In this document: piece after piece, positions 4,653 through 28,920 of the stretch
Numbering within the stretch: the first letter of the stretch is position 1
How the letters are laid out: every line of letters starts with the position of its first letter
Assembly (NCBI RefSeq): GCF_001017655.1
Contig: NZ_CP010904.1
Coordinates: 450,001-482,000, forward strand
Reading direction: 5' to 3'
Origin: Kiritimatiella glycovorans
GTDB taxonomy: Bacteria; Verrucomicrobiota; Kiritimatiellia; Kiritimatiellales; Kiritimatiellaceae
Length of the DNA stretch: 32,000 bases
Program-made: the position numbers and the translations under genes
The notes under the pieces: model-generated
Told to the model about the DNA's origin: nothing
The model's input: only the letters and a program-made list of their open reading frames with translations
The model's database searches: none

Positions 4653-4666
4653 TCCGGAGTCCGGCT

Positions 4667-9686: not shown

Positions 9687-9814
9687 GACCTCCTGTCAGG
9701 CTGAAACAACCGAGGGGGGCAGGTGCCACGCCGCGCAGCACTACACACAAACTCCACCCCTTGATGCCTGTACGCTATACCTGTTTATAACAGGAGTCAA
9801 TTGGCTTTCAGCGA

Positions 9815-9946: not shown

Positions 9947-10040
9947 CTGCTGATTGGCTGTTTGCTGTTTGAGATTGTTCCGCAATCCGTCATACTGAGC
10001 GTCCGCGTTCAAAACCCCCGCGAAAGGAGCGAGTGAAGTC

Positions 10041-10457
10041 ATGAAAAGTTATCGCAAGGAACTCTGGTTTCAGACCGGCCACCGTCGTGAGTACGTCAAC
10101 ATCACCCCGCAGGTGCGTGAGTGTCTGCGCGAGAGCGGAGTCAAGGAGGGGCTGTGTCTCGTCAATGCCATGCATATCACCGCGAGTGTGTTCATCAACG
10201 ACGACGAGGGCGGCCTGCACCGCGATTTCGAGCGCTGGCTGGAGAAACTCGCGCCCGAGAAGCCGCACAGCCAGTACGACCATAACGGGTTCGAGGACAA
10301 CGCCGACGCGCACATGAAGCGTCAGGTGATGGGCCGCGAGGTCGTCGTGGCGGTCACGGAGGGCGACTTCGACTTCGGGCCCTGGGAACAGATCTTTTAC
10401 GGCGAGTATGACGGCAAGCGCCGCAAGCGCGTCCTGGTCAAAATCATCGGGGAATGA
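10041..10457 (+). CDS. yjbQ: YjbQ/UPF0047 family protein (secondary thiamine-phosphate synthase-like)
   Basis: The protein is 138 aa. It shows the typical family pattern: VNITPQVRE...[20 protein letters not shown]...[52 protein letters not shown]. An AAGGAG RBS is present. Confidence 0.85.
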
Positions 10458-10494
10458 TCGAAATGAACCGCGTCTTTTCCCCGGAAATGAGCTG

Positions 10495-12756: not shown

Positions 12757-14070
12757 TTACACGTAATCGTTGAACCGGTGTTCGAGCATCTCCTGCCGTC
12801 CGGACTGGAGTTCGGGTTCGCCGTGTTCGAGGACATGCGCTTCGAGCTCCTCGAACCCGAGTTCGCCGTTTTCGATCCTGCGTCCGAATTCGCCGTCCCA
12901 TCCCGCGTAGCGCTGTTTCACGAAATCGGCGAACACGCCGTCCGCGATCATGTTCGCGGCCGCTTTGAGCGCGCGGGCGAAGGTGTCCATGCCCGCGACA
13001 TGACCGTAGAACAGGTCTTCGGGGTCGATCGACTGGCGCCGCACGTGGGCGTCGAAGTTCAGCCCGCCCGTGGTGAACCCGCCCGAGCGCAGGATCGTGT
13101 ACATCGCGCGCGTCGCGTCGTAAATACTGGTCGGGAACTGATCGGTGTCCCAGCCCAGCAGCAGGTCGCCGATATTGGCGTCGACGGAGCCCAGCATCCC
13201 GTTGGCCGCGGCGTACTCCAGCTCGTGCTGGAAGTCGTGCATCGCGAGTGTCGCGTGGTTGGCCTCGATGTTCAGCAGGAACTCCCGGTCGAGTCCGTTT
13301 TTCACCAGGAAGCCGTGGACGCTCTGCGCGTCGAAATCGTACTGGTGCTTGGTGGGTTCTTTCGGCTTGGGTTCGATGTAGAGCGGGCCCTTGAATCCGA
13401 GCTTCTTCTTGTAGTCGACGGCCATATGCAGAAACCGGGCGAGGTGGTCGGTCTCACGTTTGAGATCGGTATTGAGCAGCGTTTCGTATCCCTCGCGCCC
13501 GCCCCAGAACACGTAGCCTTCGCCGCCCAGCCGATGCGTGAGTTCCATCGCCTTCTTCACCTGCGCCCCGGCCCAGGCGAAGACCTCCGGCGAGGGATTG
13601 GTCGACGCGCCGGCCATGAAACGGCGGTTCGAGAACGCGTTCGTCGTGCCCCACAGAAGCTTCATGCCGCGGTCGTTCTGGAGTTGTTCGGCGAGGTCGA
13701 CGATCTCGTCCAGCCGGCGGTTGGTCTCCGCCAGATCGCCACCCGCTTCCGGCGCGATGTCGCGGTCGTGGAAACACCAGAACTCGACGCCGAGCTTGGT
13801 GAAGAACTCGAACGCCGCGTGCATCGTCTCGCGCGCCGCGTCCATCGGATCGTCGGGCTGGAGCCACTCGCGGATCATCGAACCCGGTCCGAAGGGGTCG
13901 GCGCCCAGCCCCTTGAAGGTGTGCCAGAAGCAGACCGCGAAGCGCAGATGTTCGCGCATCGGTTTGCCCATGACCTCTTCGTCGGGGTTGTAGTGGCGGA
14001 ACGCCATCGGGTTGCGGCTGTCGGGACCTTCGTACGCGATCCGGTCGACCTTCGGGAAGTACGTCTTCAT
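12757..14070 (-). CDS. xylA: Xylose isomerase (class II)
   Basis: The protein shows full-length family resemblance. Matching segments include FPKVDRIAYEGPDSRNPMAFRHYNP, FWCFHDRDIAPE, LWGTTNAFSNRRFMAGASTNP, VFWGGREGYETLLNTD, IEPKPKEPTKHQYDFD and NIEANHATLAMHDFQHEL. An AGGAG RBS is present. Confidence 0.95.
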   Translation of the reverse strand: MKTYFPKVDRIAYEGPDSRNPMAFRHYNPDEEVMGKPMREHLRFAVCFWHTFKGLGADPFGPGSMIREWLQPDDPMDAARETMHAAFEFFTKLGVEFWCFHDRDIAPEAGGDLAETNRRLDEIVDLAEQLQNDRGMKLLWGTTNAFSNRRFMAGASTNPSPEVFAWAGAQVKKAMELTHRLGGEGYVFWGGREGYETLLNTDLKRETDHLARFLHMAVDYKKKLGFKGPLYIEPKPKEPTKHQYDFDAQSVHGFLVKNGLDREFLLNIEANHATLAMHDFQHELEYAAANGMLGSVDANIGDLLLGWDTDQFPTSIYDATRAMYTILRSGGFTTGGLNFDAHVRRQSIDPEDLFYGHVAGMDTFARALKAAANMIADGVFADFVKQRYAGWDGEFGRRIENGELGFEELEAHVLEHGEPELQSGRQEMLEHRFNDYV

Positions 14071-14247: not shown

Positions 14248-16020
14248 ATGCGCATGGTACGGAAGAGTCTCCTGGCGGTTTCGGGGGTGTGGATCGCGGG
14301 ATTGCTCGCGGGCTGTCTGACGGCGCAGGAGCCGGAAACGAGTTTGGGCGAGATGACTCGGTTCTACCGCGGGCAGGCCGTGCTCAGCGAGAACTGGTCG
14401 ATCGGCGGGCTTCAGGCCGGAGGCGAGATCTGTGTCGTCCCGGAGTATCTGACCGACCCGGATCTGGATTTTCCCTACATGAAAAAAGATTCCGCGCGCG
14501 AGCTGATGTTCACGGACCGCATCACCGCCGTGAGGTTTCTGGGCGGCATCGCCGACGATATTATCCCGCTGGAGAGCGAACACGGCGGTAAGCTGGACCT
14601 GGCGTACCGGGATGAAGACGGCGAGCTTCGTTATCGCTGGTCTTCGCTCGACCGCTTTGACCCTTTCGCCGAGCTCTTCGGCTCAAACATTACCGTAGTG
14701 CTCGACAATATTCCGTCGGCGTTCATCTCGAATCCCCACATCGACAATTACGGTCAAATCGTCCCGCCGGAGGATTACGACGAATGGTCGCGGTTCATTC
14801 GCGCCCTGTGTCGCGAACTGATTCGACGCTACGGCGAAGAGCATGTCTCGGAGTGGCGCTTCCGCATCTGCACCGAGGCACGCATTCATACCGACACTGA
14901 AGGATTCTGTCGCCATTACGATGAGACCGTGGCCGCGGTCCGCGCCGTACTGCCCGGCGCGAAATTCTCACCGTACAACGCGGCGGGGATTCATCAGCTC
15001 AGCGACCAGCATATCGATTTCTATGGAGTGCTGGAGCATTGCGCCGAAACGGGAGCGCCGTTCGATTTCGCGCCGGTTTCCTATTATTCCGTCGCCTTGA
15101 CCTCAAAAGAGGCTGAGCAGAGGGGGCCTCTGGTGGTGACCGATCCGTCCGATGACCGCATGTGTCGCTGGACGGTATCGCCGGCGCTGCGCACCGAAGA
15201 GGACTACTTCCCCTTCTGGGAGCGCATCGACCGTGAACTCGGCCGCCGCGTCCCGCGCGAGATCCAGGAACTCGGCATTCTCTTTAATGAGTACGGCGAC
15301 TTCACCGCCGAGCCCGGGGCGCGCGGCGCCGCCTGGCTTTTCCACCTCCTCTTCCACATGAAGGAGGTCAACGACATCCGCTACGCCTGGCACTGGCACG
15401 TCACCGACCCGATCATGGCGCCGGGCACGCCTCGCGAGGACTCTCCCCGGCTCCTGCGCGGCAACGGCTGGCTGTATTCCATTCTCGATCACACCGAGGG
15501 CGCGGATCTGTACCGCTTTGAGGTCGAGTCCAAGTCGCCCGACCGCGACCTGCTCCTTAAAGCCATCGGGTTCAAGGACGCGGACGACGGGCACAGTTAT
15601 CTGATTCTTTCGGCGTTCAATATCGACCGCACCCGTCCGTTCGAACAGACCGTGACGGTCACCCTGCCGCCCTGGTTCGTCCGGCCGGAACGAGTGAATG
15701 TGCGGCAGACCCGGCTCGACGACGCGACGGATGTTTACAGGGCGATGCGCCGCGACCTCGAACGCGAAGGTCTGCTCAACCCGAACATTGCGGCCGATCC
15801 GAACGCCCTCTACGCGGTGACCCCCGTGCGTCCCGAGAAGTCGCTGGCGACCGGCGAGGGGAAGCGCTATCTCGAAAAGAACTGGGAATCCTACGAGACG
15901 ATGATCCGCGACGCGTTGACCCTGAAACCGTTCGGGGGTGAACTGACCCCGTGTTCCGGCGGGACTGAACTCAAACTGCCGGTATCCACCCCGTCGGTCA
16001 CGGTGCTTCGGTTCGATTAG
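14248..16020 (+). CDS. Lipoprotein; GH39-like (clan GH-A type) TIM-barrel glycoside hydrolase, paralogue 1
   Basis: The lipobox is GLLAGC. The conserved block is VRFLGG...DLAYRDEDGELRYRWSSLDRFDP...ITVVLDNIPSAF...YGQIVPPEDYDEWSRFIRALCRELIRRYGEEHVSEWRFRICTEA. This aligns with the GH39 acid/base region (W-x-F-E-x-W-N-E-P). The candidate nucleophile strand is REIQELG. The family assignment is made by eye only. Confidence 0.65.
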   Translation: MRMVRKSLLAVSGVWIAGLLAGCLTAQEPETSLGEMTRFYRGQAVLSENWSIGGLQAGGEICVVPEYLTDPDLDFPYMKKDSARELMFTDRITAVRFLGGIADDIIPLESEHGGKLDLAYRDEDGELRYRWSSLDRFDPFAELFGSNITVVLDNIPSAFISNPHIDNYGQIVPPEDYDEWSRFIRALCRELIRRYGEEHVSEWRFRICTEARIHTDTEGFCRHYDETVAAVRAVLPGAKFSPYNAAGIHQLSDQHIDFYGVLEHCAETGAPFDFAPVSYYSVALTSKEAEQRGPLVVTDPSDDRMCRWTVSPALRTEEDYFPFWERIDRELGRRVPREIQELGILFNEYGDFTAEPGARGAAWLFHLLFHMKEVNDIRYAWHWHVTDPIMAPGTPREDSPRLLRGNGWLYSILDHTEGADLYRFEVESKSPDRDLLLKAIGFKDADDGHSYLILSAFNIDRTRPFEQTVTVTLPPWFVRPERVNVRQTRLDDATDVYRAMRRDLEREGLLNPNIAADPNALYAVTPVRPEKSLATGEGKRYLEKNWESYETMIRDALTLKPFGGELTPCSGGTELKLPVSTPSVTVLRFD

Positions 16021-16091
16021 GCGGTAAACCGGCCCATCCCGGCTGACCCGATAGAAAGCGCCGTGCGGCGCGGAAACCAGAGGAGGAACCG

Positions 16092-17909
16092 ATGATCTTA
16101 CGAATGGCGATGGCATGGATGCTTGTGGCGACGGTGTGGGCTCAGGAGCCGAATGAACTCATCGTCAAACAGAGTGAGCGCGAGCGTCTCTATCTTATGA
16201 CGCTCGAGAAGATGCTCGACCTCGCCAAGCCCGTGCATCGCATCGATGCCGATGCCAGTCGCATCGGGCTGGACCTCAGGTCGGGGTCGGCGGGCTACCG
16301 CGGAGAAATTGAGCCCTTCTGGCGTATTCGCGCTCTGCCCGACCGTTGGCTCAATCCGCCCACGTGGGCCATCTCTTCCGACAAGCCCGTAATCGGCCTG
16401 CTGGAGGATTTCACCGGGCGCAACCTCAGCGAGCATCCGAAGACCGCCCTGCTCGACGAGGGCATTTCCTGCGTGCGCTTTCTGGGCGGATGGAAAAAAC
16501 CCTCCCGGCCGGGCGGGGAGTACGAGGAGGGCACGCCGATTGAATCGTACGACCTCGTCTATCGCGGCGATGACGGCGCTTTGAAGTATCGCTGGGAGCG
16601 CGTGCACGGACGGCTCGACCCGCTTGTCGAGAACGGACTGACGCCGCTGATCGTGCTCGACAACGTCCCCCACATGTTTGCGGAGGGCGAGGGGAATCCG
16701 GTCTACGGCCAGCACCTGGCACCGAACGATTTCGAGGCCTGGGGCACGTTTATCGAGGCCCTGTGCCGCGAACTGGCCGACCGCTACGGATTCGAGAAGG
16801 TCAATCAGTGGCGTTTCCGGGTCGGCACCGAGATGGACAACCCGAACCACTGGGAGGGCGGGGCCGAGGACAGCCTGGTCAAATACCTCAAGACCTACGA
16901 TCACGCCGCGGCGGCGGTGAAACGCGTGCTGCCCGGCGCGAAGATCGGCCCCTGCAACTTCAACAGTATGTTTGCCGGGCAGATCGATCGCAAAGTGCCG
17001 CCCATGGCGGTCTTCGAGCATTTTGCGCGCGGCACCAACTACGCCACGGGCGAAATCGGGTCTCCGGCCGATTTCGCCGCCGTCTCCAGCTACGGCATGT
17101 ACTGGATGGGCGGGGAGTTCGATCATCCGCTCGCCGCCGCGTACGGATATCATCCCGACACCCTCCGCCTGCATGCCGACCTGCTCAAGCGGCTGCGGGC
17201 CACTTCGCCCCGGTTCGCCGACATCCCCATCGAAGTCCACGAACACGGGACCCTGATGAATAAAAACAACACGGTTAGCTACGAACCGGGAGCCTTCGGC
17301 GCGGCGTGGACCGCGACGCAATATATCGTCGGGATCGAGGAGGGCTTCGCGCAGATCTTTCACTGGGCGGATCACGAGGGTTTCCGCGGGAACATCATCC
17401 TTTACGGTCACGCCTGGCTGCGGGCGGTCATGGAGCGGTTCGTGGGCGGCGAGGCATGGGTGCTGCCCGTGGCGAATGCGACCGAAGACGCCTTTATCGA
17501 CGCGCTGGCCGTGCGCCGGGACGGCCGGCTTTACCTGATGATCTCCGCCTACCGCGCGGAGCGGGAAGACCGCTCGCAGGAGACGGTGGAAATCCCGCTG
17601 CCGCGCAGGTATCGCGGGGCTGCGGTACGGCAGCTGCGGATGGATCACGAGACCTCGCCCTACGAACAGATGCTCCGCGATCTCAAAGCCGCGGGCGAGG
17701 CGAAGGCCGCAATCGGGGCCACCGGAATGATGGCCACGCCGGCCGGGCGTCAGATGCTGGCCGGACAGGCCGACCGCTACGTGGAGATGCAGCGCGACAG
17801 CTTCACCTGGAAGCCGTTTGAGGGGAATGTGCGGAACCGCTTCTGGCGCGGTCCCGTGCTGGAGACTCCCGTGGCGGTTCCCTCCGTCACGGTGCTGAGG
17901 ATCGAGTGA
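16092..17909 (+). CDS. Secreted GH39-like TIM-barrel glycoside hydrolase, paralogue 2
   Basis: The signal peptide is MILRMAMAWMLVATVWAQEP, and an AGAGGAGGA RBS is present. The conserved block is VRFLGGW...DLVYRGDDGALKYRWERVHGRLDP...LIVLDNVPHMF...YGQHLAPNDFEAWGTFIEALCRELADRYGFEKVNQWRFRVGTEMDNPNHW...YDHAAAAVKRVLPGAKIGP. This resembles the alpha-L-iduronidase/XynB region around W-N-E-P. The candidate nucleophile strand is IEVHEHG. Confidence 0.65.
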   Translation: MILRMAMAWMLVATVWAQEPNELIVKQSERERLYLMTLEKMLDLAKPVHRIDADASRIGLDLRSGSAGYRGEIEPFWRIRALPDRWLNPPTWAISSDKPVIGLLEDFTGRNLSEHPKTALLDEGISCVRFLGGWKKPSRPGGEYEEGTPIESYDLVYRGDDGALKYRWERVHGRLDPLVENGLTPLIVLDNVPHMFAEGEGNPVYGQHLAPNDFEAWGTFIEALCRELADRYGFEKVNQWRFRVGTEMDNPNHWEGGAEDSLVKYLKTYDHAAAAVKRVLPGAKIGPCNFNSMFAGQIDRKVPPMAVFEHFARGTNYATGEIGSPADFAAVSSYGMYWMGGEFDHPLAAAYGYHPDTLRLHADLLKRLRATSPRFADIPIEVHEHGTLMNKNNTVSYEPGAFGAAWTATQYIVGIEEGFAQIFHWADHEGFRGNIILYGHAWLRAVMERFVGGEAWVLPVANATEDAFIDALAVRRDGRLYLMISAYRAEREDRSQETVEIPLPRRYRGAAVRQLRMDHETSPYEQMLRDLKAAGEAKAAIGATGMMATPAGRQMLAGQADRYVEMQRDSFTWKPFEGNVRNRFWRGPVLETPVAVPSVTVLRIE

Positions 17910-17975
17910 GCTTTTAATGCCGGGATGCCGGTGTGTTGCAGAACCGGACGCACACAGCTTGATGGAGGGCGACCG

Positions 17976-20666
17976 TCAGCGAACCGGGAGTCGGACCCCG
18001 ATGCGGTAGAAACCGGAGCTCGGATCCGGCGGGCTCCACTCTATTTCCCCGGCGGGAGGGGTGAGGGTAAGATTGCTCGCCACCGCACTCCATACGCCGT
18101 CGACCTCGGCGGCGTGTTCAATCCGGTACCGGCGTCCGGTGATCGCCGGCCAGCGGACGGAGAGGGACCCGCCGGTTTGGCGTCGCGGGGAAAGGCGAAG
18201 CCGCGAGTACCGGTTCGTGGGGTCGGTTCCGGCGATATACTCCTTCCATGCCGCGAAGCGGTCGCCGTCGATATCCGCCGCATCGGCCGCGCGATAGCCG
18301 CGGACGCCGAGCCCGTGATCATCGAGCCAGGCGTGCGGTGTGCCATGGCCTGTGGTTTCGGGGCCGATGTAGAGGACGATGCACTCGGGAGGCGTCAGGG
18401 TCACACGCAGCCGTGTCATGCCGGCCTCCTCGATGAGGGTGCCGTCAAAGGGCGCGAGCGTCAGCGCGCGGCGGACGGCGTCATGGTACTCGGTCAGCCG
18501 GTCTCCCAGGAATTCCTTCGACGGGTCGAACATGTTGGTGCTCGTCATCCCGCCGATCGAACCGAGCTGTTCGGGGATTGCCGCGAAGTCGCCGTCGAGC
18601 AGTCCCTCGTCCTCGAGATCGCGGCGCATCAGCCAGTGCGGGGCGTTGGTCTGTCCATACCGAACCGCCAGGAAAGAAGTGTCGGTGCCGGATGGGATCA
18701 GCGCGTCGGGGACGAGGAGGTCGAAGGTTTCCGGCTCGTGGTGGAGGCGGTCCGGGTTGAACGCGGAGGCGTAGATCCAGAGCGCATTGGTGTGGGCGGA
18801 ACCGATCGCCTGAAGCTGCGTGGAGGGTTCTGCGGGGTCGGTGACGGTAAAGGAGTAGCCCTCGCCTCCGCGCGAGCGATCCAGCGTCGCCAGAAACCAG
18901 CCTGAGCTCGTGAGTACGGAATGAAGCCCGCGGGTCGTGCGAAAGCGGTCAAAGATTCCCCAGTGATAGTAGCGGTCGAGACCCCGTTCGCGAAGGCCGA
19001 GGATCGTCTGCATATGCCACGCGGCGCCGCGCGCGCCGGGCTCGCCGGTCGGAAGGCCGCTCTCGCATTTGAGGATGCCGAACTCGTGGATCTCGCGGGA
19101 GACGTCGCAGGTTTCCGGCAGGCGGTCTATCGTCGCGTCCCAGAAATCGGCGTCCTGATCGACTTGCGCCGCGGGGTTGTGCGGGTGCCCCGGTTGAGCG
19201 ACGTAGGAAGAGATGGCGATGAAATCGAACGGGCTTCCCGTTTCTCCCGTGGCGTAGCTGATCCCGCCTGCGCAGTGTTCGGCAAGCGCGAACATGTCGA
19301 CGTTGTTTGCGGAGGGATTGCTCTTGCCGCCCGCATTGTTGAACGGTCCGAACCCGGCGCCGGGCAGGACGCTCCGGATCGCGGCGGCGGAGTAGTCGTA
19401 GATCTTGAAATACTCCGTCTGGCTTCCGTCGAAGCGTTCACGGCTCTGGCATTCGGTGCCCTGCCGGAAGCGGAAGCCGTTGGCCGTCTCGAAGCCGTAA
19501 AGATCGACAAGTGCGACGCACATATTGGAGACGAACGTGCCCCATTCCGTAAAGTCGGCCGGGGCGCGGACCTGGCCGTAATGCTGGGTTACGGTGTTTT
19601 CGGGGAAGCACCAGGGGATGTTGTCCAGTACCAGCGTGAGGTTTGTGTATCCCGCATCGATGTAGGGGTCGAGCCGCGCCTCCAGTTTGTCCCACCGGTA
19701 CTGCAGTTCGCCCTCGCCGTTCCGGTACACCAGATCCGCGGCCGGTCCGTCGGGCTGTTCGGCCTTGTCGTCATCATGCCACCCTCCGATCAGGCGCACG
19801 ACCGTGCAGGCGTCGGCAAACGGGATCTCCTCGTCCGCCTCCGGGTCGCGCATGCGCGGGGCGAATGAGCTTCTTCGGATGCAGGCCGGGTAGGCCTCAA
19901 ACCCCTGGCCTCCCGTCAGCCATTCGCCGATCACCGGCTCGCCGCGCCAGAACGGGGTCCACGCGCCGATGTATTCCGGGTCGTTCGGATCGGTCGAGGG
20001 TTCGACGCGCAGGGTGAAGTTGGTCGAGCCCACCGCCGCGTTTTTGCGCGCCGTCGCCGTGACAAGGACTTCGATCGCGTTGCCCCCGACACAGGGCCCC
20101 GTGCGCGGGCGGTAGACCGTCCCCTCCGGGCTGATTACCGACGGCGCGGACGTCGTCCAGATCAATTCCGCGTTCTGCGCGACGTTGGTCGAGAAGGCGA
20201 CATCGCCGCGTACCGAGTCCGCGGAGTCACCGGGCGCATAGGTGATCTCCGTCTTCACCAGCGTCCGTTCCACCGACGCCGTGTCCGTGTCGTCCGTGCG
20301 GAAGAAGAAGGGATCGGACCACGCAACGCCGAGGGTGTTGCTCGCCCTTGCGCGGAAGACGTAGGGCGTGTCCGGTTCGAGATCGGTAACGAGATACTTG
20401 AAGGACCCTCCCGCGCTGTGGGTCAGCAGGAGGGTGTGCGTCCAGCCGGTCAGGGCGAGGCCGCCGTCCGCCGTGCCCCAGCAGAAGTGCAGATCCGCCG
20501 GATCTTCGGAGGTGAAGCTCGCGTCGAGCCAGCCGTAGAAATCGCGCATGCCGTGCATTCCGACCGAATCCATGATCGGGGCCTGCGCCCCGGCTCCCAG
20601 CGGAAGCAACACGATCAATGACGTCAGGCCAAGCCTGCAGCACCATCGTTTACACGCAGTTTCCAT
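17976..20666 (-). CDS. Secreted multidomain protein: FN3-like and Ig-like N-terminal domains, a GH39-like TIM barrel (paralogue 3) and a C-terminal TSP3-like/beta-sandwich module
   Basis: A signal peptide is present. The FN3-like segment is DLEPDTPYVFRARASN. The core is VRLIGGW...DLVYRNGEGELQYRWDKLEARLDP...LVLDNIPWCF...YGQVRAPADFTEWGTFVSNMCVALVDLYGFETANGFRFRQGTEC. The candidate nucleophile strand is REIHEFG. The C-terminus reads GTPHAWLDDHGL...DIDGDRFAAWKEYIAGTDPTN...GRRYRIEHA...GFYRIGVRL. Confidence 0.65.
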   Translation of the reverse strand: METACKRWCCRLGLTSLIVLLPLGAGAQAPIMDSVGMHGMRDFYGWLDASFTSEDPADLHFCWGTADGGLALTGWTHTLLLTHSAGGSFKYLVTDLEPDTPYVFRARASNTLGVAWSDPFFFRTDDTDTASVERTLVKTEITYAPGDSADSVRGDVAFSTNVAQNAELIWTTSAPSVISPEGTVYRPRTGPCVGGNAIEVLVTATARKNAAVGSTNFTLRVEPSTDPNDPEYIGAWTPFWRGEPVIGEWLTGGQGFEAYPACIRRSSFAPRMRDPEADEEIPFADACTVVRLIGGWHDDDKAEQPDGPAADLVYRNGEGELQYRWDKLEARLDPYIDAGYTNLTLVLDNIPWCFPENTVTQHYGQVRAPADFTEWGTFVSNMCVALVDLYGFETANGFRFRQGTECQSRERFDGSQTEYFKIYDYSAAAIRSVLPGAGFGPFNNAGGKSNPSANNVDMFALAEHCAGGISYATGETGSPFDFIAISSYVAQPGHPHNPAAQVDQDADFWDATIDRLPETCDVSREIHEFGILKCESGLPTGEPGARGAAWHMQTILGLRERGLDRYYHWGIFDRFRTTRGLHSVLTSSGWFLATLDRSRGGEGYSFTVTDPAEPSTQLQAIGSAHTNALWIYASAFNPDRLHHEPETFDLLVPDALIPSGTDTSFLAVRYGQTNAPHWLMRRDLEDEGLLDGDFAAIPEQLGSIGGMTSTNMFDPSKEFLGDRLTEYHDAVRRALTLAPFDGTLIEEAGMTRLRVTLTPPECIVLYIGPETTGHGTPHAWLDDHGLGVRGYRAADAADIDGDRFAAWKEYIAGTDPTNRYSRLRLSPRRQTGGSLSVRWPAITGRRYRIEHAAEVDGVWSAVASNLTLTPPAGEIEWSPPDPSSGFYRIGVRLPVR

Positions 20667-20789: not shown

Positions 20790-22235
20790 ATGGCGGATGA
20801 CCCTGCGGTGAAAAAAGGACACGCACACCACAAGACGGCGGACAAGGACCGCGTGGGGCTTGGCCGCAAGATCGCCTACGGTTTCGGCGGGCTGGCCGAG
20901 AACACCATGCACAACGCGGTCAACAACATGGCCAACCCGGTGTTCAATGTCGGCTTCGGGGTCGCACCCACCCTGCTCGGAATCGCCACCTTTATCTTCC
21001 GGCTGTGGGACGCCATGACCGACCCGTTCATGGGGGTCATCAGCGACCGCACCCGCACGCGCTGGGGACGCCGCCGGCCGTATATCGTCCTCGGCGCCGT
21101 GTTCTCCGGGCTCTTTTTCGCCATGATCTGGTGGTGCCCGCGCGATATGAGCGAGGCGGCGTATTTCGGCTGGTTCCTCGTCTCGGCTCTCCTGTTCTAC
21201 ACCGCCTTCACCGTGTTCGGCGTACCGTACCTGGGAATGGGCTACGAATTGAGCCCGGACTACCATGAGCGGACGCGGATCATGTCGTTCCGCACCTGGT
21301 TCGCGTCGGTCGGCGGATTCTGTATCCAGTGGCTGTTCTGGCTGACCCAGCGCGATATGTTCGACGACACCATCGAGGGGATGCGCTACGTGGGGCTTGG
21401 CGTGGGCCTGCTGCTTATCGTCACGGCGGCGGCCCCCGGCCTCTTCATCAAGGAACGTCCGATCTCCGAGGTGGAGGGGAAGAAAACCCGGGCGAGCCTC
21501 ACGTTCGGAAGCGTGATCTCGGTGTTCAGGGTCAAGCCGTTCCGGTACATCTTCGGCGCGCTGATCGCCGCGGTCGCCGGGATGTTCACCGTCATTATTC
21601 TCGGATTCTACATCAACGTCTATTACCTCTTCGACGGCGATCTCAAGGCGGCCTCGACGGTGATCGGGGTCAGCGGCTCGTTTTACCACATCTGCTGCCT
21701 GCTTTCCGTGCCGATGATCGCGGCCGTCGCCACACGGATCGGCAAGAAGGGGACGCTGCTGATCTTTATCGGCCTTGCCGTGATCGGCACCTTGCTCAAG
21801 TGGTATCTCTACCTGCCCGAAGCGCCGTATATGCAGCTCATCGTCGTGGCGCTCATGGCACCGGGGCTGTCGGCGGTATGGACGCTGCTCGCGGCGATGA
21901 ACGCGGACGTGACGGATGTCGACGAACTGGAGCGCGGCGTACGCCGCGAGGGATCGTTCGGTGCAATCTTCAACTGGACACTGAAGCTCGGCTTCGCCGT
22001 GTGTTTTCTGCTGGCGGGGATCATCCTCGAAGCCACGGGGTTCAACGAGCAGCTCGGCGGCAACCAGCCCGAAGGCACCATCACCGCCATTCGCGCACTG
22101 TACACGCTCGTGCCCGCGAGCGGCCTGGTGATTTCGATGGTGATTATCTGGTTCTATCCGATCGACGAGGACAAGGCGTACGAGACGCGCAACAAGCTTG
22201 AAGCGATCCGTGGCGAGCAGGAGGTCGAGGCTTAA
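20790..22235 (+). CDS. GPH-family (glycoside-pentoside-hexuronide:cation symporter) MFS transporter, copy 1
   Basis: The GPH signature is RLWDAMTDPFMGVISDRTRTRWGRRRPYI. About 12 hydrophobic helices are present. A GGGAGG RBS lies before ATG 20790. Confidence 0.85.
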   Translation: MADDPAVKKGHAHHKTADKDRVGLGRKIAYGFGGLAENTMHNAVNNMANPVFNVGFGVAPTLLGIATFIFRLWDAMTDPFMGVISDRTRTRWGRRRPYIVLGAVFSGLFFAMIWWCPRDMSEAAYFGWFLVSALLFYTAFTVFGVPYLGMGYELSPDYHERTRIMSFRTWFASVGGFCIQWLFWLTQRDMFDDTIEGMRYVGLGVGLLLIVTAAAPGLFIKERPISEVEGKKTRASLTFGSVISVFRVKPFRYIFGALIAAVAGMFTVIILGFYINVYYLFDGDLKAASTVIGVSGSFYHICCLLSVPMIAAVATRIGKKGTLLIFIGLAVIGTLLKWYLYLPEAPYMQLIVVALMAPGLSAVWTLLAAMNADVTDVDELERGVRREGSFGAIFNWTLKLGFAVCFLLAGIILEATGFNEQLGGNQPEGTITAIRALYTLVPASGLVISMVIIWFYPIDEDKAYETRNKLEAIRGEQEVEA

Positions 22236-22243
22236 TCTTGGCC

Positions 22244-23674
22244 ATGCACGGACATCGGCAAAAGCATCATAAGACGGCGGCCAGGGACCGTGTAGGCTTC
22301 GGCGGCAAGGTGGCGTACGGACTCGGCGGGCTGGCCGAGAACACGATGCACAACGCCGTCAATAACCTCGTCATGCCGATTTATAATATCGGCTTCGGCG
22401 TCTCTCCCGTCCTGCTGGGCATCGCGGCGAGCATTTTCCGCCTCTGGGATGCCATGACCGATCCGGTCATGGGGGTGATCAGCGACCGTACCCGTACGCG
22501 CTGGGGACGCCGCCGCCCGTATATCGTACTCGGCGCGATCTGCGCCGGGGTCCTGTTCGCGATCATCTGGTGGTGCCCGCGGGGCATGAGCGAAATCGCC
22601 TACTTCACCTGGTTCCTCGTCTCGGCGCTCCTGTTCTACACGGCGTTCACGGTCTTCGGCGTCCCCTACCTGGGACTCGGGTACGAGTTGAGTCCCGACT
22701 ACCACGAACGCACACGGGTGATGTCGTTCCGCACCTGGTTCGCGTCGATCGGCGGCATCCTGATGCAGTGGCTGTTCTGGATGACCCAGCGGCCGGTGTT
22801 CGACGACACGATCGAGGGCATCCGCACGGTGGCCATCGGCGTGGGCGTGGTTCTGATTATCACGGGAATAGCTCCGGGCCTCTTTCTGCGTGAGCGACCG
22901 ATCCCGGCCGCGGAAGAGCGGAACACGCGCAGCCGGATCAACCTGGCCAGTATCGCCTCCGTCTTCAAGGTCAAGCCCTTCCTCTATATCTTCGGGGCCC
23001 TCATCTCCACGGTGACGGGGATGTTTATGGTGGGCATGCTGGGATTCTATATCATCGTTTACTATCTCTTCGCCGGCGACCTGGGTGCGGCCTCCTTCGT
23101 CGTCGGCGTCAGCGGCTCCACGTATCACGTCTGCTGCCTGCTCTCGGTCCCGCTCATCTCCTGGACCTCGTCGCGGATCGGTAAAAAGGGTGCCCTCCTC
23201 ATCTTTATCGGCCTCGCCGTGGTCGCGACCCTCCTGAAGCTCGTGCTCTACACACCGGAGAACCCGTACCTGCACCTGATCGTCATCGGGATGATGGCGC
23301 CGGGGCTGTCGGCGGTATGGACGCTGCTCGCGGCGATGAATGCGGACGTGACGGACGTGGACGAGCTGGAGCGCGGCGTGCGTCGCGAGGGGTCGTTCGG
23401 CGCGATCTTCAACTGGACGATGAAGCTGGGATTCGCCGTGTGTTTTCTGATCGCGGGGCTGATCCTGGAGGCGACGGGGTTCGACGAGGCCCTCGGCGGT
23501 GACCAGGCGGAGCACACGCTGCTGGCGATGCGCATCCTCTTCTCGCTCGTGCCCGCCGCCGGCCTGCTGATCTCGATGGTCCTGATCGCCCTCTATCCGA
23601 TCAATGAAGAGAAGGCCTATGAAGTGCGGGCGAAACTCGAAGCGATTCGCGGAGAGCAGGAGGCGGCCACATAA
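22244..23674 (+). CDS. GPH-family MFS transporter, copy 2 (tandem paralogue)
   Basis: The same signature is present (RLWDAMTDPVMGVISDRTRTRWGRRRPYI). By eye it is about three-quarters identical to copy 1 across the full length. It starts 9 nt after the copy-1 stop, and an alternative TTG start lies at 22238. Confidence 0.85.
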   Translation: MHGHRQKHHKTAARDRVGFGGKVAYGLGGLAENTMHNAVNNLVMPIYNIGFGVSPVLLGIAASIFRLWDAMTDPVMGVISDRTRTRWGRRRPYIVLGAICAGVLFAIIWWCPRGMSEIAYFTWFLVSALLFYTAFTVFGVPYLGLGYELSPDYHERTRVMSFRTWFASIGGILMQWLFWMTQRPVFDDTIEGIRTVAIGVGVVLIITGIAPGLFLRERPIPAAEERNTRSRINLASIASVFKVKPFLYIFGALISTVTGMFMVGMLGFYIIVYYLFAGDLGAASFVVGVSGSTYHVCCLLSVPLISWTSSRIGKKGALLIFIGLAVVATLLKLVLYTPENPYLHLIVIGMMAPGLSAVWTLLAAMNADVTDVDELERGVRREGSFGAIFNWTMKLGFAVCFLIAGLILEATGFDEALGGDQAEHTLLAMRILFSLVPAAGLLISMVLIALYPINEEKAYEVRAKLEAIRGEQEAAT

Positions 23675-23749
23675 GCAGACGGGCCGCCGCCATTGCGCGC
23701 AGGGGCGAAGGGCTGCGTTTTTGAGCCAAACCGGAAAAAAGGAGGGACC

Positions 23750-25237
23750 ATGAATCGTGCTGATTTTCTGAGCCTGTCGGCGATGACCGGGGCCGCGGCG
23801 GTGCTGCGGCCGGGGATGATGAACGGCGCAACGGGCTTTCGAAACGTCCTTATCTTTACGGTGGACGACATGGATTACATGTCGCCGAATTTCGCCGGCT
23901 TTCCCGTCAAGGACGGGCTTACGCCGAATATGGACCGGCTCGCAAGCGAGGCGCTCTACTTTTCCCGCGCCCACGTGAGCTGTGCGGTCTGTCAGCCGGC
24001 GCGGCAGTCGACCATGACAGGCAAGCACCCGCACGTGAACGGATCGATGGGATTCGTGTCGGTGCCGGAAGGTGTCCCCAGTCTCCCGGAAATTCTGATG
24101 CGGCACGGCTGGTTCACGGGTTCGACTAACAAGGGCCGCGATTACAGGTCGTTCGAGTGGTCCCACTTCATTCCGGGTCACGGCGGTCGCGGATTCGGCC
24201 GCGTACCGGAAATGCTGGCCGGTGACGTGAAGACGTTCATCGGGGAGGCGCGCAAAGAGGAGAAACCTTTCTTTATCGGCGTGCACACCGGCGATCCGCA
24301 CCGCGGATTCCCGGGCAGCGAGCAGTCGAAACAGAAGGTGCAGAAGGTGAAGGAGGATTTTCCGCAGGCGAAGGACCGGATTTTCGCGGCGGATTACGAC
24401 GACGTCTGCAGTCCGTCCGAGGCCTGGATACCCCCGTACCTCCCCCAGCTTCCCGCGATCCGCAGGGAGATGGCACAGTACTATAACGGCGTTCATCGTG
24501 CGGACCAGTCGCTGGGCGCCGTGTTGAAAACACTGGAGGCCGAAGGCGTGCTGGAGGAGACCCTCGTGGTCTTCTACAGCGATAACGGGGCTTCGTTCCC
24601 CACGTCCAAACAGAACTGCTACCCGTACTCGACCCGGACGCCGCTGCTGCTGCGCTTTCCGGGCGCGAAGGGCGGGGGGCGCGTCGACCGCGACCATTTC
24701 GTGAGCACCATGGACGTGATGCCCACGATCCTGGATATCCAGGGGCTGCCCGCGCCGAAGGATATCAACGGCCGCTCGCTCGTGCCGCTGTTCAGGGGCC
24801 GTCCGCAAAAGGGCCGCGATCACATCTTCACCACCTACAACTACGTCAAACCCGGCGTGCAGGTGTGCCCGAAACGCGCCATCCATACAAAGAAATACTC
24901 ATATATCTTCAACCCGTGGCCGGACGGCGAGACGGAGACGCGCGGGGAGCGGCAGAGCGGTTTGACGTTTGCCGCCATGCAGGCGGCGGCGGAGACGGAC
25001 GAAGATCTGGCCGAACGGGTGGACTTTATCCTGCACCGGACGCGCGAAGAACTCTACGACCGGGAAAAGGATCCCTGGTGCCTGAACAACGTGATCGACG
25101 ACCCGGACTACGCCCGGGCGAAGAAAAACATGAAGGCGCTGATGGAACGCGAGATGCGCACAACCGGCGACCCGCTCCTGAGCGCGTTTCTCGAAGGAGG
25201 ATCGTTCCCGGCGGAATGGTCGGAGTTCAAGGGATGA
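23750..25237 (+). CDS. S1-family sulfatase, N-sulfoglucosamine sulfohydrolase (SGSH)-like
   Basis: An AGGAGGG RBS is present. The N-terminus MNRADFLSLSAMTGAAAVLRPG looks like a Tat signal but has a single Arg. LIFTVDDMDY is present. The formylglycine motif is CAVCQPARQSTMTGKHPH. The SGSH-like blocks GDPHRGF, PPYLPQLPAIRREMAQYY, VVFYSDNGASFP and ELYDREKDPWCLNNVIDDP are present. Confidence 0.85.
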   Translation: MNRADFLSLSAMTGAAAVLRPGMMNGATGFRNVLIFTVDDMDYMSPNFAGFPVKDGLTPNMDRLASEALYFSRAHVSCAVCQPARQSTMTGKHPHVNGSMGFVSVPEGVPSLPEILMRHGWFTGSTNKGRDYRSFEWSHFIPGHGGRGFGRVPEMLAGDVKTFIGEARKEEKPFFIGVHTGDPHRGFPGSEQSKQKVQKVKEDFPQAKDRIFAADYDDVCSPSEAWIPPYLPQLPAIRREMAQYYNGVHRADQSLGAVLKTLEAEGVLEETLVVFYSDNGASFPTSKQNCYPYSTRTPLLLRFPGAKGGGRVDRDHFVSTMDVMPTILDIQGLPAPKDINGRSLVPLFRGRPQKGRDHIFTTYNYVKPGVQVCPKRAIHTKKYSYIFNPWPDGETETRGERQSGLTFAAMQAAAETDEDLAERVDFILHRTREELYDREKDPWCLNNVIDDPDYARAKKNMKALMEREMRTTGDPLLSAFLEGGSFPAEWSEFKG

Positions 25238-25587: not shown

Positions 25588-28500
25588 ATGAATAGAAACT
25601 GGACCCTCTGGGCCGTCGCGGCCCTTACCGCATCCACACTTTGTGCCGGCGCGGCCGGCGGTGCGCCGCGCGATGCCCTGGAAGCCGGATTCGCCGAACC
25701 CCCGCCGGAAACCCGTCCTTACGTGTTCTGGTACTGGGTCAACGGTCACATTACGGAGGAGGGCCTCGACGCGGATTTGGACGGGTTCGTGGACGCGGGC
25801 GTCGGCGGGGTGTACATCCTGAACGTCATGCGCATGTTCCCGAAGGGGCCGGTCGAGTTCAACTCGCCCGAGGGGATGGCCCTGATCAAGCACGCCATTC
25901 GGGGCGCGGGCGAGCGGGGGCTCGAGGTGGTCCTCTACAACGGCGCGGGCTGGTCGTCGAGCGGCGGGCCGTGGATTACCCCCGAATACGCGATGCAGAA
26001 ACTGACCTGGAGCGAGACGCGCGTGCAGGGCGGGAAGAAGGTGGAACGGGTGCTCGCCCGGCCGCCGGTCATCGAGACCTACCGCCCGGAGTTCTTCGGT
26101 CCGGAAGAGACGCTCGACTGGTATCGCGACGTGGCCGTTCTCGCCTTCCCCACGCCGGAAGCTGAGCAGGCCCTGCCCGGCGAACCGGAAATCACGGCCA
26201 ACGATCCGGACTTCGACTCTTCAAAGCACGGACACCCTTCGCCGTATGTCTTTTCGCGGCTGAAGACCTCGGCGGAAAAGGCCGGGGAGATCGTGCTCGA
26301 ATATCCCGAACCGTTCACCGCCCGCAGCGTGCGGCTCGACGTGCACCGGAGCTGTACGCCGACCATTCGTGAGGGATTCCTCTTCGCCTCGGACGACGGC
26401 GAGTCGTGGCGCGAGGTGCGGTCGTTTCCGATGGGGGACCGAATGCCGGTCGAGGCGCCCTTCGCCCCCGAGCACGCCCGGTTCTGGAAACTCCGGTTTC
26501 CGCTCGAGCGCGGGGCGGGCGAGGTCCGGTTGACCGGGCTCGCCGTGCAGCCCGGGTACCGCATCGAAGACGGATCGGCCAAGGCCATGTTTCACGACCA
26601 CGGGCTCGATGACCCCGCGCCCGCGTTTTCCTCGCCCGCGCCGGAGAAAGACGCGGTGATCCCCTTGAACCACGTGATTGATCTCTCGGAGCATATGGAT
26701 GCCGAAGGGCGACTCAGCTGGAAGGCCCCGCCCGGCGACTGGACCATCCTGCGCCTCGGACGCACCCCCACCGGCGCGCTGAACTCGAATCCGGCCTACG
26801 GCGGCAGCGGGCTCGACTGCGATAAACACCGCGCCGAGGCGGTGGACTTTCAGTGGCGTCACGCGCTGAGCCCCTACTTCGACGACCCGGATGTCGCCCC
26901 GCACATCGACGGGGTGCATATCGACAGCTGGGAGGTCGGCGCGCAGAACTGGTCGCAGGGATTCGGCGAGGCCTTCGAGCAGCGGACGGGCTACGACCTG
27001 CGCCGGCTGCTGCCGGTGATGACCGGTCGGGTGGTCGGCGACCTGGAGATTTCCGAGCGCTTTCTCGGCGATGTGCGGCGGGTGGTGACCGGGTTGATCG
27101 CGGACGAGTATTTCGCGCACACCCGTGACCGGGCGGCCGAAGCGGGCGCGCTGTTTTCAAACGAACCCTACCACCAGAACCAGTTCGACTCGTCCGACGC
27201 GGGGATGCGGGTCGACGTGCCGATGTGCGAGGTCTGGCGCGGGGACCGGGTCACGCCGGCGTTCTGGGCGAAACTGGGCGCTTCCCCCGCTCACGTCGCG
27301 GGGAGGAACATCGTCGGCTGTGAGTCGTTCACGTCCAATACGCGTCCGGAGGACGGCGGTGACTGGTCGACGGATTTCGACGATCAGAAGCTGACCGCGA
27401 ACGTGATCTTTGCGGGCGGGGTGAACCGGATGGTTTTTCACGTGAGCGCGCACCAGCCGTGGATGAACGTCGTGCCCGGCATGACCGTCGGGGGCTGCGG
27501 CCAGCATTTTGAGCGGACGAATCCGCTCTGGTGTCACGGCGCGCCGGCGTTTAACCGTTACGTCTCGCGCTGCCAGTATCTCCTGCGGCAGGGACGTTTC
27601 GTCGCCGATGTGCTGTACTCGTGCGGAGAGGATTCACCGAGCAAGTCACTGGACGTGAAGGGGGATCTGCATCCGGGGCGCGGGCTGGACTACGACGTCT
27701 GCAGCCCGGAGATCATCCTGCGCGATCTGAGCGTGGAAGACGGCGATCTCGTCCTGCCGCACGGCATGCGCTACCGGCTGCTGGTGCTGCCCGACCGTCC
27801 GGCGATGAGCCTCGCCATGGCACGTAAGCTGGAGGAACTGCTCGAAGCCGGGGCGACGATCGTGGCCGCCCCGCCGGAACGGACGACCGGTCTGTCCGGT
27901 TATCCGGATTCGGACGCCGCGTTGAAGCGGCGGGTCGAGGAGATCTGGGGCGAAGGCCGGGCATGCCCCGATGCGGGTCGACGCGTGGGGCAGGGGACCC
28001 TGTTCTGGTGGCGGCCGGTCAGTGAGATCGTTGCGCGGATGGATATTCCGCCCGATTTCCGCGCGCCCGTCCCGGATCCGCGGACGCCCTACCTGCACGT
28101 CCACCGCCGCATGGAGGACGGAACCGAGATCTACTTTGTGGCCAATACGCAGCGGAAGGAAGCGGAGGACGTCGACTGCGCTTTTCGGGTCACGGGAAAA
28201 CGGCCCGAGCTGTGGGACCCCCGGACCGGGGAGACGCGTCCGTTGCCCGAATATTCCGTCGAAGGGCCGATGATTCGTGTGCCGCTGGATTTTGCCCCGC
28301 TGGAGTCGTACTTCGTGCTCTTTCGTGAGGCGGGTGCGGCGGAACCGTCCGCGGAGGTCAATTTTGCGGAACGGCCCGTGATGCGCGAGATCGGCGGTCC
28401 GTGGCGGGTCTCGTTCGACCCCGAATGGGGCGGACCGGAGTCGGTGATGTTTGCGGAGCTTACGGACTGGCGCGATCATGAGGACAAGGGCGTCCGCTAC

Positions 28501-28920
28501 TACTCCGGAACTGCGGTGTACCGGCGCACGTTCGAAATGGCGCAGGTGGAGGCGGATCGGCGCATGTTCCTCGACCTGGGCCGTGTCGAGAACGTGGCGA
28601 CGGTGCGGCTCAACGGCCGCGAGCTGGGGACCGTATGGTGCGCGCCGTGGCGGGTCGAGGTGACGGGGGCGCTGCGCGAAGGGAAGAACCGGCTTGAGAT
28701 CGAGGTCAGCAATCTGATGGTCAACCGCATGATCGGCGACGAGCAGTTGCCGCTGGACTACGAGCGCGATGCGCGCGGATGGCCGAAAAGCATTCCCGAA
28801 TGGGTGACCGGGGATAAAAAGCGCCCCAGCGGGCGATATACTTTCGCCACGTTTACTCCCTGGAAAGAGGACTCGGAACTTCTGCCCTCCGGGCTGCTCG
28901 GACCGATGCGTATCAGGTAG
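25588..28920 (+). CDS. Large secreted glycoside hydrolase, GH106-like (alpha-L-rhamnosidase family) with a C-terminal GH2-type sugar-binding-like domain
   Basis: A signal peptide is present. The N-terminal motif FAEPPPETRPYVFWYWVNGHITEEGLDADLDGFVDAGVGGVYI is characteristic of the ~1100-aa GH106-type proteins as I recall them. The C-terminal region reads GPWRVSFDPEWGGP...YYSGTAVYRRTF...LDLGRVENVATVRLNGRELG...GKNRLEIEVSNLMVNRMIGD. An AGGAG RBS is present. Confidence 0.55.
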   Translation: MNRNWTLWAVAALTASTLCAGAAGGAPRDALEAGFAEPPPETRPYVFWYWVNGHITEEGLDADLDGFVDAGVGGVYILNVMRMFPKGPVEFNSPEGMALIKHAIRGAGERGLEVVLYNGAGWSSSGGPWITPEYAMQKLTWSETRVQGGKKVERVLARPPVIETYRPEFFGPEETLDWYRDVAVLAFPTPEAEQALPGEPEITANDPDFDSSKHGHPSPYVFSRLKTSAEKAGEIVLEYPEPFTARSVRLDVHRSCTPTIREGFLFASDDGESWREVRSFPMGDRMPVEAPFAPEHARFWKLRFPLERGAGEVRLTGLAVQPGYRIEDGSAKAMFHDHGLDDPAPAFSSPAPEKDAVIPLNHVIDLSEHMDAEGRLSWKAPPGDWTILRLGRTPTGALNSNPAYGGSGLDCDKHRAEAVDFQWRHALSPYFDDPDVAPHIDGVHIDSWEVGAQNWSQGFGEAFEQRTGYDLRRLLPVMTGRVVGDLEISERFLGDVRRVVTGLIADEYFAHTRDRAAEAGALFSNEPYHQNQFDSSDAGMRVDVPMCEVWRGDRVTPAFWAKLGASPAHVAGRNIVGCESFTSNTRPEDGGDWSTDFDDQKLTANVIFAGGVNRMVFHVSAHQPWMNVVPGMTVGGCGQHFERTNPLWCHGAPAFNRYVSRCQYLLRQGRFVADVLYSCGEDSPSKSLDVKGDLHPGRGLDYDVCSPEIILRDLSVEDGDLVLPHGMRYRLLVLPDRPAMSLAMARKLEELLEAGATIVAAPPERTTGLSGYPDSDAALKRRVEEIWGEGRACPDAGRRVGQGTLFWWRPVSEIVARMDIPPDFRAPVPDPRTPYLHVHRRMEDGTEIYFVANTQRKEAEDVDCAFRVTGKRPELWDPRTGETRPLPEYSVEGPMIRVPLDFAPLESYFVLFREAGAAEPSAEVNFAERPVMREIGGPWRVSFDPEWGGPESVMFAELTDWRDHEDKGVRYYSGTAVYRRTFEMAQVEADRRMFLDLGRVENVATVRLNGRELGTVWCAPWRVEVTGALREGKNRLEIEVSNLMVNRMIGDEQLPLDYERDARGWPKSIPEWVTGDKKRPSGRYTFATFTPWKEDSELLPSGLLGPMRIR

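Follow-up and report, generated by a model that had tools for sequence, protein, structure and literature searches.

Glycoside hydrolase family 39 (GH39) is regarded as a small and well-understood family, comprising β-xylosidase, iduronidase, PslG, and a few arabinogalactan enzymes. Structures of GH5 and GH39 enzymes define the active-site signature of clan GH-A (Arg, His, Asn, Glu, His, Tyr, Glu, and Trp). Of these, the two His and the Asn form hydrogen bonds with O2/O3 of the −1 sugar in canonical enzymes of GH39 and of the clan; O2 is the position normally read by the Asn, which precedes the acid/base Glu. The closest described systems are the XynB-type β-xylosidases (Thermoanaerobacterium saccharolyticum, PDB 1PX8/1UHV; Geobacillus stearothermophilus XynB1, 2BS9/2BFG; and Caulobacter crescentus, 4EKJ), human α-L-iduronidase (IDUA; 4MJ4 and 3W81), which keeps the Asn-Glu pair, and P31_GH39 of Formosa agariphila. 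The last of these was introduced as a novel endo-rhamnosidase that shares little sequence identity with other GH39 proteins (PMC8360166) and was later described as cleaving the Xyl-Rha3S bond (PMC12858550). Here, we discuss three GH39 paralogues, A, B, and C, encoded in a 32,000-nucleotide stretch of the Kiritimatiella glycovorans genome (contig NZ_CP010904.1, positions 450,001 to 482,000; "the window", from whose first letter coordinates are counted unless a comparison contig is named). In all three, Thr stands in place of the Asn. Judged from their sequences, A, B, and C would be retaining glycosidases that act on sulfated xylose/rhamnose glycans through a remodelled −1 subsite, a reading to which we give about even weight, and the Thr-Glu (TE)-type proteins to which they belong form, on the same basis, a distinct and large subdivision within GH39.

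Gene A (14248..16020, + strand) encodes a 590-residue lipoprotein with the lipobox LLAG↓C23, gene B (16092..17909, +) a 605-residue protein with a plain signal peptide (…VWA↓QEP), and gene C (17976..20666, −) an 896-residue protein with a plain signal peptide; all three reading frames were found at the coordinates and lengths given in the original prediction, an earlier reading of this DNA by eye. C alone is described with accessory domains: an Fn3-like region (residues 84–124; the Pfam matches are weak and sub-threshold), an aBig_2 domain (residues 139–222, window 20001–20252), and, after the GH39 core (residues about 228–772), a conserved C-terminal module of ~130 residues (residues 766–896, window 17976–18371). 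The early claim that the copies differ in localization signals holds, and the parallel claim for accessory domains holds for C, with its Fn3-like part below threshold. The three proteins are colinear across ~550 residues with pairwise identities of 35–36% (MAFFT), and paralogue-to-paralogue BLAST scores of 199–243 bits are far beyond chance, which bears out the long common core that had been proposed. Two motifs of this core are present in all three, namely RFR.[GC]TE (A R204–E210, B R241–E247, and C R399–E405) and [IV][HQ]E.G (A E341, B E384, and C E528). The regular expressions first written for the core were, however, slightly over-strict, as A has VRFLGGI and not GGW, and B has IVLDNVP and DFEAW.

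That these proteins belong to GH39 is supported by several comparisons. All three score above the gathering score of 26 bits for Pfam PF01229 (A 64.8, B 70.1, and C 38.8 bits). An AlphaFold2 model of B, built from a 15-sequence alignment, has a predicted local distance difference test (pLDDT) score of 85.6 and a predicted template modelling score (pTM) of 0.88, and GH39 structures make up all of its top 24 Foldseek matches in the PDB (E 6e-24 to 1e-19, TM 0.54–0.70). They include human iduronidase, XynB-type xylosidases, 4EKJ, 6UQJ, and 5NDX, and are followed, after a clear E-value gap, by GH51, GH79, and GH30. Modeling and Foldseek were applied to B; for A and C, the fold is extrapolated from the 35–36% identity. 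Taken together, A, B, and C are GH39 proteins, predicted to have a (β/α)8-barrel and a β-sandwich, and the TIM barrel on which the original prediction depended is found in the match of the B model to GH39 barrels. The further suggestion that the trio might represent an unassigned family was wrong, since these are Pfam GH39 members and NCBI already uses the name "GH39 family glycosyl hydrolase" (B is 100% identical to a K. glycovorans protein under that name, which UniRef lists as "Beta-xylosidase"). The weaker form of that suggestion, a poorly characterized subfamily, stands: the active-site signature is altered, and no characterized member was found.

The register of the two catalytic Glu residues, first assigned by eye, is the same in three alignments. 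phmmer places "RFRICTEAR" of A under "PFEIWNEPN" of XynB; the profile of the clade sets GTE opposite WNE and hEfg opposite ITEYN of XynB1, in an alignment that extends through the C-terminal β-sandwich of 4EKJ; and hhalign against a canonical GH39 profile, with 428 aligned columns and a probability of 100%, agrees with both. The Glu pair thereby corresponds to E160 and E277/278 of XynB, with the acid/base at the end of β4 and the nucleophile at the end of β7. The acid/base is found at T209-E210 in A (14872–14877), T246-E247 in B (16827–16832), and T404-E405 in C (19452–19457), and the nucleophile at E341 in A (15268–15270), E384 in B (17241–17243), and E528 in C (19083–19085). An Asn-Glu pair elsewhere in the proteins was looked for, and none of the phmmer, clade-profile, and hhalign alignments offers one; the clan GH-A Asn has truly given way to Thr in all three (T209 of A, T246 of B, and T404 of C).

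Five of the signature residues, which make up the catalytic and scaffold part, are kept in the trio: the two Glu together with Arg on β2, Tyr on β6, and Trp on β8. The other three are replaced, each by a smaller residue: His by Leu on β2, Asn by Thr on β4, and His by Ser on β6. In A, the residues concerned are R96-x-L98, D153-N154, S278-x-Y280, and W383, and in B, R129-x-L131, D190-N191, R243, S332-x-Y334, and W425. With XynB, the trio shares the Pfam family, the two-domain fold, the Glu pair in register, the β2 Arg, the β6 Tyr, the β8 Trp, and colinearity through the C-terminal β-sandwich, although XynB-type enzymes and the B model have only ~16% identity in the Foldseek alignments. The canonical motifs R-x-His, E-I-G-F-M-P, W-x-x-E-V-W-N-E-P, and His-x-[Tyr/Lys] differ in the trio, however. 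Relative to XynB, R-x-His has become R-x-Leu-Gly-Gly, E-[IF]-G-F-M-P has become V-L-D-N-V-P, Asn-Glu has become Thr-Glu, and His-x-Tyr has become Ser-x-Tyr. On β4, moreover, Trp at −2 from the acid/base has become Gly, and Glu at −4 has become Arg, a reversal of charge four residues ahead of the acid/base. The XynB residues that we take to contact xylose are His54, Asn159, His228, and a Glu-Glu loop after Trp316; none of these is conserved in A, B, and C, where Leu, Thr, and Ser stand instead and the "FEE" loop is absent. Collectively, the trio appears to have kept the core catalytic apparatus typical of retaining glycosidases in clan GH-A, and retaining chemistry is predicted.

The Thr-Glu pair is not peculiar to the trio: it marks a large subdivision of GH39 that spans several phyla. 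An exhaustive search with a hidden Markov model over 1.84 billion cluster representatives yielded 2470 relatives with an E-value of 1e-3 or lower, of which 366 reach 1e-30. Conservation was counted in the best 150 of the 2470 representatives, clustered at 50% identity (B numbering). The acid/base Glu is invariant (150/150), and Thr precedes it in 143 of the 150. At −4, Arg is found in 141 and Lys in 7, and at −2, Gly in 122. The Asp-Asn pair on β3 is present in 141/150 and 135/150, respectively, the β6 Ser in 147/150 and the β6 Tyr (Y334) in 135/150, the β8 Trp (W425) in 146/150, the β2 Arg (R129) in 136/150, and the nucleophile Glu in 130/150. In addition, GTDB species genomes were scanned with a two-motif DNA pattern (VLDN.P, 48 codons, then FR.[GA]TE), and all 108 matching stretches encode GH39 relatives. 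These derive from Kiritimatiellales, Lentisphaerota/Victivallales, Planctomycetota, Verrucomicrobiota, Acidobacteriota, Armatimonadota, and, in many cases, cultured marine Bacteroidota (Algibacter, Polaribacter, Lutibacter, Olleya, Mariniflexile, Saccharicrinis, and Labilibacter), and the signature set is intact across all branches sampled. The Thr-Glu observation is thus real and more general than first held.

Within this subdivision, several branches differ in composition. The flavobacterial TE branch is tight (65–75% identity), carries generic names only, and is represented by Lutibacter agarilyticus, Algibacter agarivorans, Polaribacter spp., and Wenyingzhuangia fucanilytica (AXE80_06045). 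Its members share with the trio the set VR.LGG, VLDNVP, WRFR.ATE, S.Y, E.G, and W, but are remote relatives of A, B, and C (about 100–135 BLAST bits), and they occur as single copies in SusC/D-type polysaccharide utilization loci instead of as a trio with a GPH transporter. In a second group, about 16 of the 150 representatives, the nucleophile is replaced by Gln (I[FH]Q[FY]G; in alignment A4, P0042, P0057, P0077, P0089, P0095, P0101–P0103, P0105, P0107, P0115, P0128, P0133, P0135, P0137, and P0161). Most of these also swap the β6 Tyr for His (S-x-H), and all four representatives that retain Asn-Glu fall in this group. The correlated change of the nucleophile and its partner suggests that the Gln sub-clade may be non-hydrolytic or use another mechanism. 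In a further sub-branch, found in metagenome-assembled genomes (MAGs) of Kiritimatiellia, Phycisphaerae, and Thermoguttaceae (L023, L067, and L081), the β2 Arg is Tyr (VYLLGGR), in combination with WWFRVGTE and with G-E-F-[AT]-V on the nucleophile strand.

A, B, and C represent three orthogroups. Each is nearer to its orthologues on other contigs than to its two neighbours, and BLAST scores within a type (434–755 bits) exceed those between types (about 90–340 bits), which argues that the A/B/C split predates these lineages. The proposal of an ancient and not a recent duplication is upheld in the same way (434–755 bits to orthologues vs 199–243 bits among A, B, and C). Signal type is kept within each orthogroup: A-type proteins have lipoboxes (LAGC, SVGC, and LAGC), B-type proteins have plain signal peptides, and C-type proteins have a signal peptide, immunoglobulin (Ig)-like domains, and the ~130-residue C-terminal module. 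The three types and a GPH transporter are found together on further metagenomic contigs of Kiritimatiellales type. On contig L001, B-type, A-type, MFS_2, and C-type (with aBig_2) genes precede a GH2 gene, an esterase gene, and a sulfatase gene. The arrangement on L004 and L005 is B, A, and MFS_2, and that on L006 is B, GH3, a GH39 gene of a fourth type, a sulfatase gene, and C. Elsewhere, a Lentisphaerae MAG (L051) has three copies inside 6 kb. On L008, a 1194-residue protein (7592–11176, +) is a B-A fusion in which residues 32–613 are B-type (46–51% identity) and residues 619–1193 A-type (~50%); both active sites are intact, and Pfam recognizes two GH39 domains. P0026 (1140 residues), with two matched stretches, is likewise a B-A fusion. 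The natural fusion argues that A and B act on one substrate. The same L008 cluster also holds an Asn-Glu-type GH39 (3335–5233, +; "QFKIGNE", without VR.LGG), and both types of active site therefore coexist in one locus. Genes for uroporphyrinogen decarboxylase-like (URO-D) proteins recur near TE-type GH39 on unrelated contigs (L001 4756–5874; L003 11677–12816 and 16952–18004; L004 19075–20184; L005 13797–14906), with one further URO-D gene among high-GC neighbours.

In the window, C is followed by two genes for GPH/MFS_2 glycoside transporters (copy a, 20790..22235, +; copy b, 22238..23674, +). The copies are 74.6% identical to each other, a tandem duplication in K. glycovorans of a gene that is single-copy in L001 and L004, and they are 57–58% identical to the MFS_2 proteins inside the GH39 clusters of those two contigs, which indicates that the GPH transporter belongs to the conserved module. 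Downstream lies an S1 sulfatase gene of S1_8-like type (23693..25237, +) with an SGSH_C domain and a Tat (twin-arginine translocation)-like N-terminus; its best PDB matches are N-sulphoglucosamine sulphohydrolase (SGSH) and an "S1_8A sulfatase". A second S1 sulfatase, S1_7-like and with the twin-arginine signal RRSFL, is encoded at 3035..4594 (−). Its best PDB match is 6HHM (P18_S1_7; E 1.4e-76), followed by human iduronate-2-sulfatase. Directly upstream of A, and divergent from it, is a gene for a 437-residue xylose isomerase-like protein (12757..14070, −), so named from a sub-threshold Pfam TIM-barrel match (25.1 vs a cutoff of 31.1 bits) and a reading of its N-terminal sequence. A 1110-residue GH106 α-L-rhamnosidase with a GH2-type sugar-binding domain is encoded at 25588..28920 (+), and an AraC regulator is also present.

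Next to the S1_7-like sulfatase gene, at 4667–6517 (−), a GH78-like gene encodes 616 residues with Ig_Rha78A_N, Bac_rhamnosid_N, and concanavalin-like domains. Its (α/α)6 catalytic domain was not matched by Pfam, and the sequence stops ~60 residues into the apparent start of that domain, 73 nucleotides before the sulfatase gene. The gene is probably either a truncated pseudogene or a non-catalytic remnant. For comparison with a GH78-like gene beside a sulfatase, Formosa P36 is a sulfatase-GH78 fusion. Two other reading frames, 7377–9686 (−; 769 residues) and 30348–31982 (−; 544 residues), gave no Pfam or PDB sequence match; the 769-residue protein has a signal peptide and a faint TSP3-like/"AGTDP" C-terminal segment that resembles the start of the C-terminal module of C. 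No lyase, GH88, GH105, or uronate-catabolism gene is found among the genes of the window. K. glycovorans is a halophilic anaerobe, and GH78 and GH106 dominate the glycoside hydrolases of the strain (PMC5148204).

Further clues to the substrate come from a survey of 140 genes that lie directly beside TE-type genes in named genomes. Sulfatases are the commonest (26/140), SusC-type receptors account for 12/140, and GH78, GH106, and GH2 are also represented. PL28 ulvan lyase occurs three times (3/140), at three Bacteroidota loci (L056, L017, and L085), each with a flavobacterial-type TE gene that also adjoins sulfatases in this branch; the PL28 of Algibacter agarivorans was verified (437 bits to PDB 6D2C). 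In that organism (L056, strain JCM 18285; 823–1755, +, and 2289–3956, −), PL28 directly adjoins the TE-type GH39, and the locus continues with a 261-residue gene product of the "3-keto-disaccharide hydrolase" family and a 527-residue reading frame similar in size to the sulfatases nearby. Among Bacteroidota, 3keto-disac_hyd genes adjoin the TE-type gene in 8 of 66 cases. In the Formosa ulvan pathway, P18_S1_7 and P32_S1_8 are endo- and exo-2-sulfo-D-xylose sulfatases (PMC9096561). Both sulfatases in the window are nearest to these S1_7 and S1_8 types and hence point to sulfate on O2 of xylo-configured sugars.

These observations suggest the following working model. Loss of the three larger residues and gain of the Arg on β4 would open the O2/O3 side of the −1 pocket and make it more basic. 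The likeliest candidate for the −1 sugar would then be a xylo- or ido-configured residue that still bears a 2-O-sulfate, and an α-L-rhamnosyl residue with its axial O2 would be the alternative. The substrate would be a sulfated glycan containing xylose and rhamnose, ulvan-like or a microbial-mat exopolymer. In this scenario, C, with its Ig-like domains and C-terminal module, would act on the polymer at the cell surface, while A, anchored in the membrane, and B, soluble in the periplasm, would act on oligosaccharides. The Tat-exported S1_7-like and S1_8-like sulfatases may take off sulfate and the GH106 enzyme rhamnose, the two GPH transporters would bring in the glycoside products, and the xylose isomerase would pass xylose to metabolism. 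The original prediction had suggested ulvan, and the context of the locus (S1_7- and S1_8-like sulfatases, GH106, a GH78-like gene, and xylose isomerase) fits.

Several points weigh against this reading. The placement of Leu, Thr, Ser, Asp-Asn, and Arg around the −1 subsite is a supposition based on sequence equivalence and textbook clan GH-A geometry, and the β2 equivalence (Arg-x-His vs Arg-x-Leu) comes from MAFFT alone, as the local hhalign alignment begins past that strand. The co-located sulfatases could desulfate first, which would make a pocket tolerant of 2-O-sulfate unnecessary. Such a sulfate is, moreover, electron-withdrawing and disfavours an oxocarbenium-like transition state, and in the lysosomal breakdown of heparan sulfate, iduronate-2-sulfatase must precede iduronidase. 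K. glycovorans is the only case in which the trio has rhamnosidase genes on its flanks; the neighbours on other contigs are GH3, GH2, GH1, GH130, or DUF2264 genes. Neither a characterized TE-type member nor biochemical data for one was found in the literature; searches there for GH39 with rhamnan sulfate or Xyl2S, and for GH39 in papers on sulfated arabinogalactan proteins or on methyl-pentoses in Verrucomicrobiota, also found nothing. Finally, the strain did not grow on the polysaccharides tested, among which ulvan is not listed (PMC5148204).

A more specific version of the same model holds that TE-type GH39 proteins are "sulfo-glycosidases", which cleave with a 2-O-sulfated sugar (β-D-xylose-2-sulfate or α-L-iduronate-2-sulfate) in the −1 subsite. 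Here, the replacements Asn to Thr, His to Leu, and His to Ser would give the sulfate room, and the Arg typical of the clade, and perhaps the Asp-Asn pair, would bind it. We regard this version as tentative and, on balance, unlikely.

The first rival explanation is that A, B, and C are α-L-rhamnosidases like P31_GH39, the endo-α-1,4-L-rhamnosidase of the Formosa ulvan pathway, with Thr present because the canonical Asn is unable to read rhamnose at its axial O2; we give this a low but appreciable probability. P31 resembles the trio in being a GH39 protein encoded among S1_7/S1_8 sulfatases and rhamnosidases, and its substrate is a sulfated rhamnose/xylose polysaccharide. A GH39 endo-rhamnosidase on xylose-rich ulvan oligosaccharides exists, and it was called atypical for GH39 (PMC8360166). 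The GH106 and GH78-like genes of the locus are in keeping with such an activity, and NF042992, the NCBIfam equivalog model of P31 (α-1,4-L-rhamnosidase), is the sole NCBIfam match of A, B, and C. The scores for this model are, however, 41, 43.9, and 47.9 bits, far under the 850-bit equivalog cutoff, which no tested TE-type protein reaches. Canonical Asn-Glu GH39 controls score 27–43 bits, about as A, B, and C do; the match is largely generic on that account and was rejected as a sign of rhamnosidase specificity. Together, these scores against the NF042992 model argue that A, B, and C are not orthologues of P31. There is nevertheless a gradient, from 84–103 bits (~340 profile positions) in flavobacterial TE-type proteins, with 103 bits the best among the other TE-type proteins tested, to 37–60 bits in K. 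glycovorans-type TE proteins and 27–43 bits in the canonical set (lowest TE score, 22), and this suggests that P31 is nearer to the TE radiation. The flavobacterial TE-type GH39 beside PL28 was also considered as a P31 orthologue and rejected (84–103 bits vs the 850-bit cutoff). P31, the only characterized ulvan GH39, appears from the NF042992 scores to belong to a lineage other than that of A, B, and C. In addition, most other contigs with the A/B/C module are without rhamnosidase neighbours, and the reference activity itself is described inconsistently, P31 being said to cleave its bond "as a xylosidase" (PMC12858550).

Alternatively, A, B, and C could be ordinary exo-β-xylosidases in which Thr-Glu and the other changes reflect neutral drift within GH39. 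Membership in the family, XynB-type enzymes as the best PDB sequence matches, the xylose isomerase-like gene directly upstream, GH3 as a frequent partner, and source annotations (UniRef and JGI) of "Beta-xylosidase" or "xylan 1,4-beta-xylosidase" all favour this view. Yet three of the residues that canonical GH39 keeps around the −1 xylose are replaced jointly, the "FEE" loop that follows the β8 Trp in XynB is missing, and the neighbours are sulfatases, ulvan lyase, and rhamnosidases, not xylanases, whereas the context of XynB is xylan utilization. Near-invariance of the replacement set across hundreds of diverged clusters points to purifying selection on a different pocket and not to drift, and we consider simple xylosidases quite unlikely.

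An activity like that of α-L-iduronidase, on iduronate (possibly 2-O-sulfated) in ulvan or in glycosaminoglycan-like exopolymers, is improbable in our view. Human IDUA is the top Foldseek match of the B model (E 6e-24) and shares the family and the catalytic Glu pair, the second PDB relative of the S1_7-like sulfatase is iduronate-2-sulfatase, and iduronic acid is a constituent of ulvan (PMC11101340). The identity to IDUA in the Foldseek alignment is only ~14%, however, and the sequence match to IDUA is weaker than that to XynB (E 1e-4 vs 3e-9). IDUA has an extra Fn3-like C-terminal domain where C has Ig-like N-terminal domains instead; the window is devoid of the lyase, GH88, GH105, and uronate-catabolism genes looked for; and the strain did not use chondroitin sulfate (PMC5148204). 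That the trio consists of catalytically dead, GH39-derived carbohydrate-binding proteins, as loss of the canonical Asn and two His and the Gln sub-clade of relatives might suggest, is highly improbable, given that both catalytic Glu, the Tyr, the Arg, and the Trp are kept in A, B, and C and that the acid/base Glu is found in all 150 representatives.

Returning to glycosidases with a remodelled −1 subsite, automated pipelines call TE-type proteins "beta-xylosidase". It appears instead that much of the GH39 diversity in the environment has kept its catalytic machinery while the half of the active site that binds the sugar was rebuilt in concert; the rebuilt signature is carried by no fewer than 143 clusters (at 50% identity) and by 108 loci of named genomes. 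If TE-type proteins do act as sulfo-glycosidases, this would overturn the rule that 2-O-desulfation comes before cleavage by clan GH-A exo-glycosidases and would define a function for hundreds of misannotated marine "β-xylosidases". The module of A, B, C, and transporter, together with the B-A fusion, provides a defined three-enzyme system for reconstitution. The TE branch is thereby a testable candidate for steps still missing from pathways that degrade sulfated polysaccharides of algae and microbial mats, steps that limit both the turnover of carbon in the sea and the conversion of Ulva biomass by enzymes.

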